A stretch of DNA of 64,000 nt, taken from positions 1,692 to 65,691 of the forward strand of contig CAUSWF010000007.1 of the NCBI GenBank assembly GCA_963535465.1. Direction: 5' to 3'. The position numbers were made by a program, and so were the translations under genes. How positions within the stretch are numbered: the stretch's first letter is position 1; each line of letters opens with the position of its first letter. The notes beneath the pieces were generated by a model. It ran no database searches. It was not told where the DNA came from and was given only the letters and a program-made list of their open reading frames with translations. Source of the stretch: an uncultured Erysipelotrichaceae bacterium. Lineage in GTDB: Bacteria; Bacillota_I; Bacilli_A; RF39; UBA660. Positions 23,566 to 46,078 of the stretch are shown one piece after another.

Positions 23566-23735
23566 AAAAAAAGACTATAACATAAGGACGAACAACCGCG
23601 GTACCACCTTATTTTATAGCCTCTATACACTCAAATATTTTTAACGCAAATAACTCGCTTGTTGCCAAGAACTCATAGAGTGAATTCATTAACTCATATT
23701 ATGTATTTTCACCAACCATACACTCTCTTAAAATA
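23566..23735 (-). promoter_or_regulatory. T-box leader, Phe specifier UUC (23682-23684)
   Basis: On the minus RNA I read AGAGAGTG...GGTGA stem I, then a GAA-UUC-A specifier loop. The T-box AAGGTGGTACCGCGG follows, then a terminator helix and U7 just before the pheS RBS. Confidence 0.9.
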
Positions 23736-23767
23736 TTACGTTAACTACTATTTTCTAATCACAGTCT

Positions 23768-24310
23768 TTATACAGTCATCAATTCTTTTTCTTTCTCTTT
23801 ATATAAATCTTCTATTTTCTTATTATATGAATTAACTTCTTCTTGTACCCTATCTTCCCATCTTTCAGCTTCATCCTTAGGAAGTTTAGCTTCTTCTATA
23901 GTTTTTAATATATCACGTCTAACATTACGTAATGCAATCTTAGCTTCTTCAGAATACTCTTTTACTTGTTTAACTAATTCCTTTCTTCTATCCTCAGTTA
24001 ACTTAGGAATATTAATTCTAATACTTTCTCCATCATTAATAGGATTAAATCCCAAATTAGCAACATTGATACCTTTTTCAATATCTTTTAAACTACTCTT
24101 ATCAAAAGGTTTAATAAGTAACTCAGTAGCCTCTGGTACAGTTATATTAGCAATAGACTTTAATGGAGTTAAACTACCATAGTATTCTACCATTACTTTA
24201 TCTAAACTAGATGGATTAGCACGACCTGCTCTAACATTTTTAAATCCATTTAATAAATTTTCTAATACTTCTTCTGCTCCCATTTCAAATTCTTCTATAA
24301 AATTATCCAT
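23768..24310 (-). CDS. frr: ribosome recycling factor
   Basis: VRAGRANPSSLD and the RRF coiled-coil body. Start trimmed to MDNFIEE, preceded by GAGGTG. Confidence 0.95.
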   Translation of the reverse strand: MDNFIEEFEMGAEEVLENLLNGFKNVRAGRANPSSLDKVMVEYYGSLTPLKSIANITVPEATELLIKPFDKSSLKDIEKGINVANLGFNPINDGESIRINIPKLTEDRRKELVKQVKEYSEEAKIALRNVRRDILKTIEEAKLPKDEAERWEDRVQEEVNSYNKKIEDLYKEKEKELMTV

Positions 24311-34681: not shown

Positions 34682-34885
34682 TTAATAATCTCTATTATTA
34701 GCACGATTTCTCTTTTGAGAATTCTTAATTCCTTCTTTTTTAGCTGCTCTTCTTCTTACTCCTGGTTTGTCGTAAGCTTCTCTTTTCTTGAATTCTGAAG
34801 GGACACCATCTCTAGCTACTTTTTGCTTAAATTTTCTTAAAGCTTGGTCTAAATTTCCGCCTCTAACTGTTACACGAGTTGCCAT
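34682..34885 (-). CDS. rpsU: 30S ribosomal protein S21
   Basis: LDQALRKFKQKVARDGV...KREAYDKPG. Confidence 0.95.
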   Translation of the reverse strand: MATRVTVRGGNLDQALRKFKQKVARDGVPSEFKKREAYDKPGVRRRAAKKEGIKNSQKRNRANNRDY

Positions 34886-34986: not shown

Positions 34987-35751
34987 TTTTATCTTTTGTA
35001 CAATATTACTAATATTCTCTTTACCAAAAGCACTTAAAACTTCTATTGGTATAGCAAATATTATTGTATTAGATTGATCAGATGATAAATCATTTATTGT
35101 AGCAAGTGTTCTTAAATGTAGTGCTCCAGGAGCCTCTGCCATAACCTTAGCAGCAAGTGCTAAGTTATTAGCAGCTTCAGATTCACCTCTACTCTTAGTA
35201 ATAACAGCTTCTTTTTCACGTTCAGCTTCAGCTACCTTAGCAATAACTCTTTGCATCTCTTCAGGTAACTTAATATCTTTTAATTCAACATTTTCTACTT
35301 TAATTCCCCAAGGATCAGTCGCAACATCTATAATCTTAGTAATTTCATCACTAATCTTATCACGTTCACTTAACAACTCATCAAGTGATACAGAACCAAC
35401 AGCATTTCTCATTGTAGTTTGAGCAAGTTGACTAACTGCATATTGGAATCTTTCAACTTCAATAATACACTTAGCAGCATCAAATACTTTAAAATAAAGT
35501 ACAGCATTAATTCTAACACTTACATTATCCTTAGTAATTGCATCTTGTTCAGGTACATCTACTGCCTTAGTTCTAACGTCTACTTTTTTAAATGAATCTA
35601 TAACTGGAAATACTAAATTCCAACCTGGAAGTAATATTTTATTAAATTTACCAAATCTAAATAAAACTCCCCTTTCATATTCATTTATTTGTCTTATTGA
35701 TATTACTACTAATGCTATAAGAACAATCAAAATAAAACCAAAAATTTCCAT
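34975..35751 (-). CDS. SPFH/band-7 (stomatin-like) membrane protein
   Basis: N-terminal TM and SPFH core (INEYERGVLFRFGKF...). The gap from the small ORFs upstream is 23 nt with no terminator. Confidence 0.85.
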   Translation of the reverse strand: MEIFGFILIVLIALVVISIRQINEYERGVLFRFGKFNKILLPGWNLVFPVIDSFKKVDVRTKAVDVPEQDAITKDNVSVRINAVLYFKVFDAAKCIIEVERFQYAVSQLAQTTMRNAVGSVSLDELLSERDKISDEITKIIDVATDPWGIKVENVELKDIKLPEEMQRVIAKVAEAEREKEAVITKSRGESEAANNLALAAKVMAEAPGALHLRTLATINDLSSDQSNTIIFAIPIEVLSAFGKENISNIVQKIKKDK

Positions 35752-35774
35752 ATCTTCCTCCTGGATATATTATA

Positions 35775-35924
35775 CTACAAAATACCAAAAATTGCTAGAT
35801 ATAAATGACTACCAATATCTACTCCCATCCTATATAATATACCAACATAATAACTAAGTACTATAACCAAAGCTATAGATAAAATTACCTTAAATATATT
35901 AATACCTATCATTTTAATGGACAT
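35775..35924 (-). CDS. small hydrophobic protein (49 aa), candidate bacteriocin immunity protein; not in ORF track
   Basis: My translation is MSIKMIGINIFKVILSIALVIVLSYYVGILYRMGVDIGSHLYLAIFGIL. RBS GAGGAGGA lies 6 nt before the ATG. It overlaps the end of peptide gene B by 16 nt. Confidence 0.6.
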   Translation of the reverse strand: MSIKMIGINIFKVILSIALVIVLSYYVGILYRMGVDIGSHLYLAIFGIL

Positions 35925-36076
35925 AACTTATCCTCCTCAACTCTTCTCAAAGAAGAACCCAAACTAACTCCAACATCTCTTAATATTCTAAATATAGAAG
36001 CAATACCACTAAATATAGAACCACTAATATATCCACCTCTTATATCTCTTAAACTATCAAAACTAACATCGATCAT
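35909..36076 (-). CDS. double-glycine-leader bacteriocin-like prepeptide B (55 aa); not in ORF track
   Basis: My translation is MIDVSFDSLRDIRGG/YISGSIFSGIASIFRILRDVGVSLGSSLRRVEEDKLCPLK. RBS GGAGG. Its ATG overlaps the TGA of peptide A (ATGA). Confidence 0.7.
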   Translation of the reverse strand: MIDVSFDSLRDIRGGYISGSIFSGIASIFRILRDVGVSLGSSLRRVEEDKLCPLK

Positions 36077-36225
36077 CTACAACCTCCTGGATTAGTATAA
36101 CCATCAATTATACCTGCAATAAAAACTATTGCTGAAAACACTGCAAAAACTATCATACCTACTGCAGTAATAGATATAGAACCACCCTTAATACCAGATA
36201 ATTCTAAAACACCAATTTCTTTCAT
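36073..36225 (-). CDS. double-glycine-leader bacteriocin-like prepeptide A (50 aa); not in ORF track
   Basis: My translation is MKEIGVLELSGIKGG/SISITAVGMIVFAVFSAIVFIAGIIDGYTNPGGCR. RBS GAGGAGG lies 4 nt before the ATG. The leader has Glu at -8 and hydrophobic residues at -4, -7 and -12. Confidence 0.75.
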   Translation of the reverse strand: MKEIGVLELSGIKGGSISITAVGMIVFAVFSAIVFIAGIIDGYTNPGGCR

Positions 36226-36243
36226 ATTTCCTCCTCAGTTTAG

Positions 36244-36272
36244 ATAATATATTTTTTTGAATAACTATTCAA
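36244..36272 (-). promoter_or_regulatory. promoter of bacteriocin peptide genes, with palindrome TTGAATA-AC-TATTCAA over the -35
   Basis: TTGAAT, 17 nt, then TATTAT. It lies 11 nt upstream of the RBS GAGGAGG. The inverted repeat spans 36257-36272. Confidence 0.55.
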
Positions 36273-36378
36273 ACGACTAATTTTAATATTTTAAATACAA
36301 AAGTTAACAAAATATTATAATTGACTATATAATTTAAATAATTACTATAATAAAACTATCTAAATTATCAAATATATA

Positions 36379-36756
36379 CTATTTAAAAATAATTTTAAAA
36401 ATATTAAATATCTTAATCTTATTACTATAAATATATATAACACCACTCTCTCTATCTCTTAATAAATTATGACTCTTAATCAAAATACTACTATATTTAT
36501 TAAATATATCATTATTAATATCAATTATCTTATAGTTATATATAAAACCCTTATAATAAAAAGAACTATTATTCTTAATTAAATTATTATCACTCTTATC
36601 AACTATAACTTCATATACCCCATCACTAACACATACTATATTAAAACTCTTATAAATATTTATATAAATACTATTAAAATATATAAATATAAATATAATT
36701 ACTATAAATAATAAAATAACTAAAGTATAAACTTTCCTAAACATACTATATCTCAT
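36379..36756 (-). CDS. small N-terminally anchored protein, possible exporter accessory factor
   Basis: One TM helix plus a roughly 90-aa domain. The start MRYSMF overlaps the ABC stop and has GGGGGT upstream. Confidence 0.5.
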   Translation of the reverse strand: MRYSMFRKVYTLVILLFIVIIFIFIYFNSIYINIYKSFNIVCVSDGVYEVIVDKSDNNLIKNNSSFYYKGFIYNYKIIDINNDIFNKYSSILIKSHNLLRDRESGVIYIYSNKIKIFNIFKIIFK

Positions 36757-38779
36757 TAATATTACCCCCATCTATACATAAAATTCTATTATATAAATCT
36801 AAATTACTCTTACGATGACTTATAAATATCAAAGTAGAATTATATAAATAATCCATAATACCCATAATAATATCTCTTTCCATTGAAATAGATAAAAAAT
36901 CAAATACTTCATCAAATATATATAAACTACACTTCTTAATAATACTTCTCGCAACTATTATTCTAATACCCTCTCCATTACTTAGATTACTACCATTATC
37001 TATTATTATTTTATTAGGATCTTTTATCTTACATAAACTAATTACTTTATCAACCTCATCCTTACTATAATTAACACCCATCGTAATATTATATATAACA
37101 CTCCCATTAAATATAGCCTCTTTCGATACATATAAACTATTTCTTCTAATACACTCTAAATGATAATGATTAATATCAATATCACCTATCTTAATAGAAT
37201 TATAACTAACCTCTCTATATCTCATAAGTATATGAGCTAAACTACTCTTACCAATACCACTCTCTCCATATATAAATACTCTATCCTTATACTTTATTAA
37301 ACATTTAGCATGATTAAATATATATCTACCATCTATTTGAATATTTAAATCTAATATATTAATATCTTCTTTTAAATCATATTTTAAATAATAAAAACTA
37401 TTACTATAATCATCACTATCTAAATAATATAAATCACATATTCGCTTCATACTAATATAAAACATAGAATAATCATCTATAAGCATAAATATTCTATTAA
37501 AAGAGGATAAAACAAAAGATAAAAAAGTATTATATAAAAATAAATCTACTATACTAATACTTTCTACAATAACCTCCCTAATACCAATAGAATATATAAA
37601 AACATATAATAAATTACTAAGATTATTTTTTATATAATTAACTACATTAATAAAAAATAAATATAAATAATTAATATTAATAAACTCTTCATATAGATTG
37701 ACACTATTATCAATAAACCTCTTCTCAAAGTGACTTCCTTTAATAGTATTAATAGATGAAAACTCCTCCACTATACTACTATTAATATTATCTTCAACTC
37801 TCTTAGTTTTATTATATTTATCTCTTCTATATTTACTAGTAACAATAGAAAAAATTATATTTATAATAAAATATATTAAACATATCCAAGTAATTAACTT
37901 ACTAATCTTAAACATAAATATTAAAAACAAAATAATACTAAATATATCAATTATTAAAAACATAAATACCTTAGTAATATAATCTTTTACTATACTTAAA
38001 TCTCTAATTCTATTTAATATCTCTCCGCTAGTTCTACTCTTAAAATAATAATATGGAAGTAACAATATTTTACTAAATAAAGAAGAAGTAACTATCTTAT
38101 CAAATATAAACATAATCTTAATTATTAAAGTATCTCTAATTAACACAATAACTTCTTTCAATATATATAAACTAATTATAAAAATATTAATATAAAATAA
38201 GTTATTAGTATTACCAAACTTTTCAATATAATTAGTCATATATTTTAAATGTATAGAACAAAATAAATTAAATAAAAAACTAAATACTATAAATATAAAT
38301 ACTATAAATAAACTACTCTTATTATTTCTAATAAATTTATTAACCTCTTTTACTATAATATTTCTCTTACGCATTATAGGTAAACTCCTATTAGGTTTAA
38401 ATAATAAAAATGTATTAGTACTAATACTATTAAATTCATATTTACTTATCTTTTTATAACCACAACTAGGATCCATTATAAGTATTTCTTTATCTACTTT
38501 TACAACTACTACAAAATGCATTAAACCCTTAATATTAACATAGGCAATACATGGTAAATTATCACTAATATTATCTATATCAGACTCTACTCCCCTAGCA
38601 GCCATTCCAAGCCTCTTAGAATAATTTATAAGTTCTAATGCACTAACTCCTTCTTTATTAGTATTAGTACCCTCTCTTAAAATACTCTTACTAATATCTC
38701 CCTTATAGTATCTAATAATATATAGTAGACAACTAACTCCACAATCACTAATATCATCTTGTAACACAGCTCTTATCAT
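36746..38779 (-). CDS. bacteriocin-processing ABC exporter with N-terminal C39 peptidase domain
   Basis: C39 motifs QDDISDCGVSCL (Cys), HFVVVV (His) and DP. Six-TM core. Walker A GESGIGKSS, variant signature LSNGEG, Walker B LYIFDE, H-loop SHR. Confidence 0.85.
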   Translation of the reverse strand: MIRAVLQDDISDCGVSCLLYIIRYYKGDISKSILREGTNTNKEGVSALELINYSKRLGMAARGVESDIDNISDNLPCIAYVNIKGLMHFVVVVKVDKEILIMDPSCGYKKISKYEFNSISTNTFLLFKPNRSLPIMRKRNIIVKEVNKFIRNNKSSLFIVFIFIVFSFLFNLFCSIHLKYMTNYIEKFGNTNNLFYINIFIISLYILKEVIVLIRDTLIIKIMFIFDKIVTSSLFSKILLLPYYYFKSRTSGEILNRIRDLSIVKDYITKVFMFLIIDIFSIILFLIFMFKISKLITWICLIYFIINIIFSIVTSKYRRDKYNKTKRVEDNINSSIVEEFSSINTIKGSHFEKRFIDNSVNLYEEFININYLYLFFINVVNYIKNNLSNLLYVFIYSIGIREVIVESISIVDLFLYNTFLSFVLSSFNRIFMLIDDYSMFYISMKRICDLYYLDSDDYSNSFYYLKYDLKEDINILDLNIQIDGRYIFNHAKCLIKYKDRVFIYGESGIGKSSLAHILMRYREVSYNSIKIGDIDINHYHLECIRRNSLYVSKEAIFNGSVIYNITMGVNYSKDEVDKVISLCKIKDPNKIIIDNGSNLSNGEGIRIIVARSIIKKCSLYIFDEVFDFLSISMERDIIMGIMDYLYNSTLIFISHRKSNLDLYNRILCIDGGNINEI

Positions 38780-40593: not shown

Positions 40594-40752
40594 AAAAAAA
40601 GACCATAAATCTAAGGACGAGTATACCCGTGGTGCCACCTTAGTTCATGTCTTCCATGCTCTTTATATCTTAACGCGACTAACGATTGTCTTATAACTTG
40701 TGTCTTCATCTATTTATTATTAATAGTTTTCACCAACCACTATCTCTCTAAA
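40594..40752 (-). promoter_or_regulatory. T-box leader, Asp specifier GAC (40702-40704)
   Basis: AGAGAGATAGTGGTTGGTGA stem I, GAA-GAC-A specifier, T-box AAGGTGGCACCACGGG, and a terminator with U7 before the aspS RBS. Confidence 0.9.
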
Positions 40753-40822
40753 AATATAAATAGACTACTCTTCAAGTAAACATTACATCTATATTTTAAT
40801 AAATCATTTAAAATAAGTCAAA

Positions 40823-40858: not shown

Positions 40859-40935
<77 letters not shown>

Positions 40936-42229: not shown

Positions 42230-42622
42230 CTATCTTCCTACCCTTTCAATAAATTCTAAACTACTATCTATATCAGAATCAACAATATAACTCTTCATCT
42301 TATTATTTTCTAAATATACTAAACTAGCTCCCCTAAACTTAATATCACTAGAAATACCATATTTACTCAACTTATTATAGTAATCACTATTACTCTTATC
42401 AAGTATCTTATAACTAATATTATTACTATCTAAAACGCCCTTTACTTTATCACATAGAAAGCAATTATTATCCCTTATTAATATATAATTAAAAACTTCC
42501 CTTTTATCATCTATCCTATTATATATAGATACAACTAAGCATACTATAGGTACTAATATAATAATACTAACAATTAACCCTATAACAGCATTTCTCTTCA
42601 TCATTACTATTTCTTCATCCAT
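42230..42622 (-). CDS. membrane-anchored glutaredoxin/thioredoxin-fold-like protein
   Basis: One TM helix and a CFLC (CxxC) motif in a roughly 90-aa domain. Start trimmed to ATG MDEEIV; the track's start is a GTG inside the RBS AGGTGA. Confidence 0.45.
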   Translation of the reverse strand: MDEEIVMMKRNAVIGLIVSIIILVPIVCLVVSIYNRIDDKREVFNYILIRDNNCFLCDKVKGVLDSNNISYKILDKSNSDYYNKLSKYGISSDIKFRGASLVYLENNKMKSYIVDSDIDSSLEFIERVGR

Positions 42623-42667
42623 ACAATTCACCTATAATATTATATCATGTAAACACTTTATAGCATA

Positions 42668-45866: not shown

Positions 45867-46078
45867 AAAAAAACTACTCATCCAACAAAGGACGAATAGT
45901 TCGTGGTACCACCTTATTTTACTAGTAAACTAGCCTCATATTTATAACGTAATTACCCGTATTTATCTTTAAATAAATCGCACTTGAAAGTGATACTAAT
46001 ATACCTATCTATGTATTTTCACCAACCATACACTCTCTAAAAGAATCAGTACACTACGTCTTTCGCACTTGCTTTATA
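45867..46078 (-). promoter_or_regulatory. T-box leader, Ile specifier AUC (45992-45994)
   Basis: AGAGAGTGTATGGTTGGTGA stem I, nearly identical to the pheS leader. AUC-A lies before the closing ACTTT. T-box AAGGTGGTACCACGA, and U7 before the ileS RBS. Confidence 0.85.

Follow-up and report, generated by a model that had tools for sequence, protein, structure and literature searches.

A double-glycine-leader peptide gene pair beside a C39-ABC exporter in uncultured gut Bacilli, with likeness to class IIb two-peptide bacteriocins

Class IIb (two-peptide) bacteriocins such as lactococcin G/enterocin 1071, plantaricin EF and JK, and CibAB are made from two adjacent, co-translated prepeptides with double-glycine (GG) leaders of ∼15 amino acids (aa). 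They also have a dedicated ABC exporter with a C39 peptidase domain (C39-ABC) and a small hydrophobic open reading frame (ORF) directly downstream. Each mature peptide contains GxxxG, and one of the two forms a hydrophobic helix, the other an amphipathic cationic one. We analyzed a locus of this layout in a stretch of 64,000 nucleotides (nt), hereafter the window, from an uncultured Erysipelotrichaceae bacterium (GenBank assembly GCA_963535465.1, contig CAUSWF010000007.1, positions 1,692 to 65,691). The module consists of an exporter gene, an accessory gene, two prepeptide genes (A and B) and a small ORF (C). Our conclusion is that A and B are genuine genes, coupled in translation, and encode two GG-leader prepeptides. 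With moderate confidence we favor the reading that they specify a class IIb-like two-peptide bacteriocin whose prepeptides are cut and exported by the adjacent C39-ABC. The locus differs from the class IIb systems named above in that its mature peptides have no significant homology to theirs and carry one nearly invariant Cys near each C-terminus. It also looks vertically inherited, lies upstream of rpsU and often lacks the immunity-like ORF, and its accessory protein is of 125–150 aa and MAG1140-like, whereas LcnD and ComB are HlyD-type accessory proteins of roughly 450 aa.

Two further comparisons concern the export machinery. PCAT exporters (PCAT1/CtA, ComA/CSP, SunT/sublancin) have the same N-terminal C39 domain with Gln/Cys/His/Asp, six-helix ABC membrane domain and nucleotide-binding domain, and as with their cargo the GG leader is predicted to form a short helix (residues 6–12 of the B leader). 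The cargo here differs in being a conserved heterologous pair. The sublancin operon includes a thiol-disulfide oxidoreductase or modification enzyme, unlike the module described here. A closer likeness is to a gene pair of Mycoplasma (NCBIfam families NF045998 and NF045999), in which a C39-ABC accompanies a protein of roughly 126 aa, again in low-GC, Mollicutes-related Bacilli; the difference is that both window proteins score far under the curated cut-offs of these families.

Peptide genes and exporter in the window

The features of the module are as follows.

36746..38779, minus strand: C39-peptidase-domain ABC exporter, PCAT type (677 aa)
36379..36771, minus strand: small accessory membrane protein (130 aa if read from its first ATG, 125 aa in public calls, which start at 36756)
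36073..36225, minus strand: peptide A precursor (50 aa; TGA stop; Shine-Dalgarno (SD) sequence GAGGAGG)
36225..36181, minus strand: A leader MKEIGVLELSGIKGG (15 aa, GG end)
36180..36076, minus strand: mature A SISITAVGMIVFAVFSAIVFIAGIIDGYTNPGGCR (35 aa)
35909..36076, minus strand: peptide B precursor (55 aa; TGA stop; AGGAGG 7 nt upstream)
36076..36032, minus strand: B leader MIDVSFDSLRDIRGG (15 aa, GG end)
36031..35912, minus strand: mature B YISGSIFSGIASIFRILRDVGVSLGSSLRRVEEDKLCPLK (40 aa)
35775..35924, minus strand: ORF C, candidate immunity or auxiliary peptide (49 aa, very hydrophobic; SD GAGGAGGA)

The minus strand was read over 35600..36500 with all ORFs of at least 20 aa listed. The original prediction, made from the sequence letters and an ORF list, had placed a 50-aa and a 55-aa ORF here, behind a GAGGAGG SD and joined by an ATGA stop/start overlap, and this proved exact. 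The leaders are also as it described them: hydrophobic residues occupy −4, −7 and −12 (I12, L9 and I4 in A; I12, L9 and V4 in B), A has Glu at −8, and both 15-aa leaders end in G14-G15. The same holds for the mature peptides: A has 35 aa and GIIDG as its one GxxxG motif, B has 40 aa and GVSLG, and in both a single Cys lies close to the C-terminus.

The GG-leader pattern of A and B is not a chance feature of AT-rich DNA (GC content of the window ∼26%). The pattern [LIVMF]xx[LIVMF]xGG near the N-terminus was found in two of the 106 ORFs of 35–90 aa in the six frames of the window; these two are A and B, which are adjacent and both have an SD. Hidden Markov models (HMMs) built from other species only and run against 1273 six-frame pieces of the window recovered each peptide as the unique top match (A, E = 2.3e-14, 49.5 bits; B, E = 2e-17, 59.2 bits).

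The genes had been called unannotated. This holds for the ORF track, which is empty here because of the length threshold of the ORF lister (default minimum 60 aa), but it does not hold for public gene calls on an identical metagenome contig (ENA ERZ14236307 NODE_166), which include A, B and C at 50, 55 and 49 aa; NCBI also names one homologue "bacteriocin".

An alternative genetic code was rejected because table 11 leaves long housekeeping ORFs unbroken, with TGG as their Trp codon; the TGA stops of A and B are therefore genuine. Two public A/B calls on short contigs, P0001 and P0003, run through TGA as Trp (…GGCRW… and …CPLKW), which looks like an artefact of calling metagenomic genes under code 4.

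ORF C starts 16 nt within B, and its ATG is formed by the conserved Leu-Cys codons of B (TTATGT).

The exporter matched the Pfam models Peptidase_C39 (4.5e-27), ABC_membrane (3.1e-26) and ABC_tran (2.7e-15). Its C39 domain carries the catalytic residues Gln7, Cys13, His88 and Asp104 and is thus predicted to be catalytically competent, and the Walker A (GESGIGKS), signature (LSNGE) and Walker B (LYIFDE) motifs of the ABC part are likewise intact. The exporter had been placed immediately upstream of the peptide genes; its identity as a C39-peptidase ABC exporter stood, but the accessory ORF of 125–130 aa lies between it and A. The accessory gene overlaps the 3′ end of the exporter gene and follows the exporter in every related locus. 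A single-sequence AlphaFold2 (AF2) model of the accessory protein (pLDDT 51) was confident only for an N-terminal transmembrane (TM) helix at residues 2–37. A Pfam scan of 19 accessory proteins gave no match, and a profile search of the PDB with the accessory family found no relatives.

Conservation of the module and its relation to known families

Searching the exporter against one genome per species gave 21 loci at 33–43% identity, all from uncultured gut or rumen metagenome-assembled genomes (MAGs) labelled Bacilli, Erysipelotrichaceae, Mycoplasmatota and the like, with a few labelled Muribaculaceae. Twenty of these loci extend past the exporter and could be assessed, and 17 of the 20 have the order exporter, ∼135-aa accessory, A, B; several of the module genes start with GTG or TTG. 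A metagenome scan added 22 further loci with identical gene order, and A precedes B in all loci having both genes. Absence of the two frames and GG motifs from orthologous loci had been named in the original prediction as an argument against it; they were kept in the 17 related genomes and in all further metagenome loci.

Four more distant groups picked from the B clusters described below, all from gut metagenomes (one a rabbit-derived MAG), with a GC content of ∼25%, each contain the module: the C39-ABC, a ∼150-aa accessory protein, A (44–46 aa, …IIDGY(V/T)RPLxC), B, in some of them C, and then rpsU-yqeY. A profile of B matched 269 clusters at E ≤ 1e-3 among 1.84 billion cluster representatives (clusters at 50% identity), with the common signature GG-leader … G-x-S-(L/F)-G-S-x-I-R-R … C; some members occur on hundreds of gut metagenome contigs. 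The homologues surfaced solely through synteny and profiles, and word-indexed searches with the single window peptides returned near-identical copies only. A tblastn search of a typical B against 72,556 plasmids gave no match.

Short metagenome contigs hold rearranged forms. In P0182 (102 aa), a natural fusion, A and B are joined in one frame and two GG leaders are present; this supports a functional A–B partnership. P0267 resembles a deletion chimera of the A N-terminus and the B C-terminus, and P0215 a B/C chimera.

Invariant in A are G14, G15, F35, G38, G42 and P46, and C49 is present in all species but one; invariant in 121 sequences of B are G14, G15, G36, G40, S41, R44, R45, C52 and P53. 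The GxxxG motifs are thus invariant columns in both (G38xxxG42 in A, G36xxxG40 in B), and in the leaders GG is invariant across the family and L9 at least 90% conserved. Mean pairwise identities over 15 species were as follows.

Exporter (ABC): 53%
Accessory protein: 34%
Mature A: 46%
Mature B: 53%
S21: 90%
YqeY: 72%

A and B evolve about as slowly as the exporter. The window and strain L003 are 98.5% identical (flanking genes 98–99%), and B (L003 6001–6168) is 90.5% identical between them. Seven of the eight amino-acid changes in B fall in leader residues 2–10, while −7, −4, GG and the mature part are essentially unchanged; this divergence could stem from recombination over a localized tract, or from selection that is relaxed or diversifying in the N-terminal part of the leader. 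A third variant of the B leader is found in P0003.

In one species (L018, 8464–8767) the conserved C-terminal Cys is lost from both A (…TDPAVDSSG) and B (…NNLGPLE; Gly for Cys). This pair was confirmed in three independent samples (L018, L063, L064); the species has no C gene, and its B has a new mid-helix Cys. The joint Cys loss is a single evolutionary event, and it is no more than suggestive of a joint role of the two thiols, such as an intermolecular disulfide.

The two mature peptides differ in physical character. An AF2 model of B with a multiple sequence alignment gave a leader helix at residues 6–12 and a mature helix at 17–48 (pLDDT 72); B is amphipathic (hydrophobic moment μH = 0.69) with a pI of 9.2. 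Mature A is TM-like, with a mean hydrophobicity <H> of 0.94. Such properties fit a pair of peptides active on membranes. In a PDB search with the B family profile, the mature B helix (…INAIVNVIKLLKDAGYSLG…) weakly resembled the ankyrin-repeat consensus (E = 7.5e-4). We judged the resemblance coincidental, as its significance arises only by summing four repeats, each insignificant alone.

Models of GG leaders recognize many orthologues but not the A and B of the window. PF10439 (Bacteriocin_IIc) matched 14 of 16 orthologues and PF03047 (ComC) 11 of 16, and TIGR01847 matched 9 of 23 B members and 6 of 17 A members. P0006 reached 16.3 bits against TIGR01847, above the 15.7-bit cut-off; a match to this model probably explains the NCBI name "bacteriocin" for the one homologue. 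The claim that the mature sequences belong to no known family held: A, B, C and the accessory protein of the window found nothing meaningful in Pfam or NCBIfam, no curated model covers the mature regions of the A/B family, and PDB profile searches with A and B returned no relatives among solved structures.

There is a weak likeness to lactococcin G-beta/enterocin 1071B. Thirteen of 17 A-family members matched that model (NF038034) weakly (E ≤ 0.1); the best orthologue scored 29.3 bits (E = 7.3e-7) against a 37-bit cut-off, and the A of the window gave no match. An hhalign comparison of A with a lactococcin G-beta sequence placed W...F(I/L)xGxxxG in register, at a probability of 30%. Literature searches (double-glycine peptides in Mollicutes, RFN20 bacteriocins, two-peptide bacteriocins with an intermolecular disulfide, and Mbov_0121/MAG1140) found no published description of the family. 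Judged by sequence comparison, A and B form a new, large family of GG-leader peptide pairs with a PCAT exporter, a kind of system already known; we treat it as class IIb-like and as outside any named family.

The nearest named relatives of the export proteins are families of Mycoplasma. The best NCBIfam match of the exporter is NF045998 (Mbov_0121-family ABC transporter; 257.9 bits, E = 1.7e-76, residues 7–658), at a score below the 500-bit cut-off. NF045999 (MAG1140_fam) is the best match of the accessory family, covering 15 of 19 members at full length (best E = 1.9e-6); all score below the 35-bit cut-off, the window copy at 10.7 bits. By these scores the exporter and accessory protein appear most closely related to the Mycoplasma pair, as relatives rather than members. 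Deletion of MG_390, a C39-type exporter of M. genitalium, lowers recombination about ten-fold; together with MG_389, with which it is co-transcribed, it is part of the sigma-20 regulon of recombination and gene transfer (PMC4446450, PMC6105099). As a lead only, MG_390/MG_389 may be related to the exporter/accessory pair described here.

Proposed function and rival explanations

Directly established are the genes with their leaders, protease and exporter motifs that are intact, the deep conservation and the co-occurrence of all parts; from these we infer cleavage, export, pairing, a possible disulfide and killing activity as follows. The C39 cysteine-protease domain of the exporter would recognize each 15-aa leader and cut after Gly15, and the exporter would pump mature A and B out with the help of the single-pass accessory protein. 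Mature A (35 aa), as a hydrophobic transmembrane-type helix, and mature B (40 aa), as a cationic amphipathic helix, would pair through their invariant GxxxG motifs and might also be joined via their single conserved C-terminal cysteines. Membranes would be the target of the pair, which would thereby work like a class IIb bacteriocin, and C, a candidate immunity peptide, would perhaps protect the producer. That A and B are exported GG-leader peptides we regard as highly probable; that their role is antagonistic, i.e., that of a bacteriocin, seems only somewhat better than an even bet.

Several observations weigh against the bacteriocin reading, which is drawn from sequence. The A and B of the window matched none of the leader models TIGR01847, PF10439 and PF03047 at E ≤ 1. 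Mature A is near-neutral (pI 5.6) and not cationic. The mature peptides look to be under purifying, not diversifying, selection. The disulfide idea is based on one lineage, and conditions in gut and rumen are reducing. In an evolutionary pattern unlike that of most bacteriocin loci, the module seems to be inherited vertically and keeps its place upstream of rpsU-yqeY in related and distant loci alike, among which YqeY is only 57–90% identical.

The class IIb layout with a small hydrophobic downstream ORF, as first proposed, stood in the window, where C was found, but not across the family. Many relatives have a positional analogue of C (45–59 aa), but A and B occur with C missing or degraded in L004, L006, L007, L010, L012, L014, L017, L018, L021, L022, L037–L042 and L061, and an HMM for C built without the window species did not separate the C of the window from noise (E = 0.015). 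Apparent vertical inheritance, constant rpsU linkage and a C gene that is often missing are together atypical for class IIb. Furthermore, L005, L015 and L023, the closest exporter relatives of the window (41–43% identity), have exporter and accessory genes but no GG peptide within ∼6 kb on either side (for L023, downstream only). These three have no rpsU next door and share upstream synteny with the window (ileS, a TM-CxxC protein, SDR); the cargo genes may have separated from the exporter in them at the point where the window carries a 153-nt spacer.

The weightiest rival holds that the peptides are exported and cleaved but are no weapon, serving a role of the producer's own as a cell-cell signal, a fratricide or gene-exchange factor, or a membrane-acting heterodimer. 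We consider it the less probable reading, though one to be taken seriously. Such a role would account for the vertical inheritance and the tie to a housekeeping operon: every lineage sampled keeps the module next to rpsU-yqeY, whereas several rearrangements have changed its upstream flank (mreCD and a site-2 protease; SDR and a CxxC protein; aspS; or rsmD and ylbDE). Mature peptides that evolve no faster than the exporter, and the repeated loss of C while A and B stay, also fit it, as do the proximity of the exporter and accessory protein to NF045998/NF045999 and the place of the candidate relatives MG_390/MG_389 in the sigma-20 regulon (PMC4446450, PMC6105099); this kinship is itself only a candidate link. 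However, the combination of a 35-aa TM-type peptide with an amphipathic helix, both bearing GxxxG, corresponds to the build of pore-forming two-peptide bacteriocins and not to that of known pheromones. Nor does the module have a conserved receptor kinase or regulator next to it (by eye, only L009 has a regulator/kinase pair, beyond rpsU). Conservation throughout a species also occurs among two-peptide bacteriocins, pneumococcal CibAB being an example. A more specific version, which we think improbable, sees an ancient, vertically inherited secretion system of Mollicutes-related low-GC gut Bacilli, next to and possibly co-transcribed with rpsU-yqeY. It would export a disulfide-linked A-B heterodimer with a physiological role (fratricide, gene exchange or membrane signaling) and be the counterpart of the C39-ABC/small-protein pair in minimal Mycoplasma genomes, A and B then being the missing cargo class of those exporters.

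Two other explanations rank far below the bacteriocin reading. A and/or B might be a pheromone of the ComC/BlpC type that induces a regulon through a two-component system, as GG leaders are common to pheromones and the ComC, BlpC and EntF-induction-factor models weakly match some orthologues. Those matches are short, stand beside matches to generic GG-leader models and are probably leader-driven, and mature A and B, unlike known pheromones, make up a pair of long, hydrophobic peptides in which GxxxG is conserved. No kinase or regulator was found among the Pfam-annotated neighbors, none was conserved among the ORFs inspected in 16 loci, and no histidine kinase/response regulator is conserved in >40 loci; a classical pheromone circuit is very unlikely because none is conserved nearby. 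That A and B are chance open frames in AT-rich intergenic DNA, encoding nothing, is suggested by their shortness and by the lack of a curated family match for the window peptides, but we excluded it and give it a negligible probability. The frames have strong SDs and translational coupling, were recovered by the independent HMMs (E-values ∼1e-14 and 1e-17), and are conserved at the protein level in relatives whose exporter is only 33–43% identical, in metagenome loci and in the 269 clusters of B relatives.

With the class IIb-like bacteriocin still the preferred reading, the family is of interest in several ways. It is a large uncharacterized family of paired secreted peptides (B family, at least 269 clusters), all from uncultured gut and rumen Bacilli with almost no known biology. 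If antimicrobial, its members might serve as narrow-spectrum agents and help to explain how these Bacilli compete. The evolutionary stability, rpsU linkage, paired cysteines and frequent lack of an immunity gene make it a test case for non-antagonistic roles of "bacteriocin-like" loci. The resemblance of the exporter and accessory protein to the Mycoplasma gene pair of unknown function gives a testable lead on that pair.

Spacer and flanking genes

The remaining features of the window that were examined are as follows.

36226..36378, minus strand: AT-rich spacer between the accessory gene and A (153 nt; contains the SD GAGGAGG and a palindrome)
36256-36273: perfect 8+8 palindrome TTTGAATA-N2-TATTCAAA, ∼30 nt upstream of the A start codon
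34975..35751, minus strand: SPFH/Band-7 (HflK/stomatin-like) gene, between C and rpsU in the window species alone
34682..34885, minus strand: rpsU (ribosomal protein S21, translation), downstream neighbor
42230-42631, minus strand: 133-aa ORF with an N-terminal TM helix and a CFLC (CxxC) motif, membrane-anchored thioredoxin/glutaredoxin-like by look
40610-40784, 45885-46077 and 23581-23771, minus strand: T-box leaders (three in all), preceding aspS, ileS and another gene
40862-40935, minus strand: tRNA gene

The spacer has no counterpart in most relatives, where the accessory gene and A abut or overlap. Its palindrome could be an operator, a candidate to be read with the fact that inverted repeats are common in this AT-rich DNA. 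A scan for promoters and terminators, uninformative in this AT-rich DNA, found 41 promoter-like sites against 40.4 expected, no excess over chance, and no terminators.

On the 3′ side of C the window continues with the SPFH/Band-7 gene, rpsU, yqeY, ybeY, dgkA, era, recO and glyQS. At other loci rpsU directly follows B or C, with no SPFH/Band-7 gene between. In L004 (8845–11252), two paralogous ORFs of ∼400 aa with hydrophobic N-termini follow B where C and rpsU would be expected.

The TM-anchored CxxC protein was considered as a dedicated disulfide partner and rejected: its gene travels with the SDR gene, beside which it is kept in L005, L013 and L015; it is absent from most module neighborhoods and is not consistently near the peptide module. 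Upstream of the module lies aspS, behind a T-box leader; the T-box leaders of the window are typical of Firmicutes regulation.

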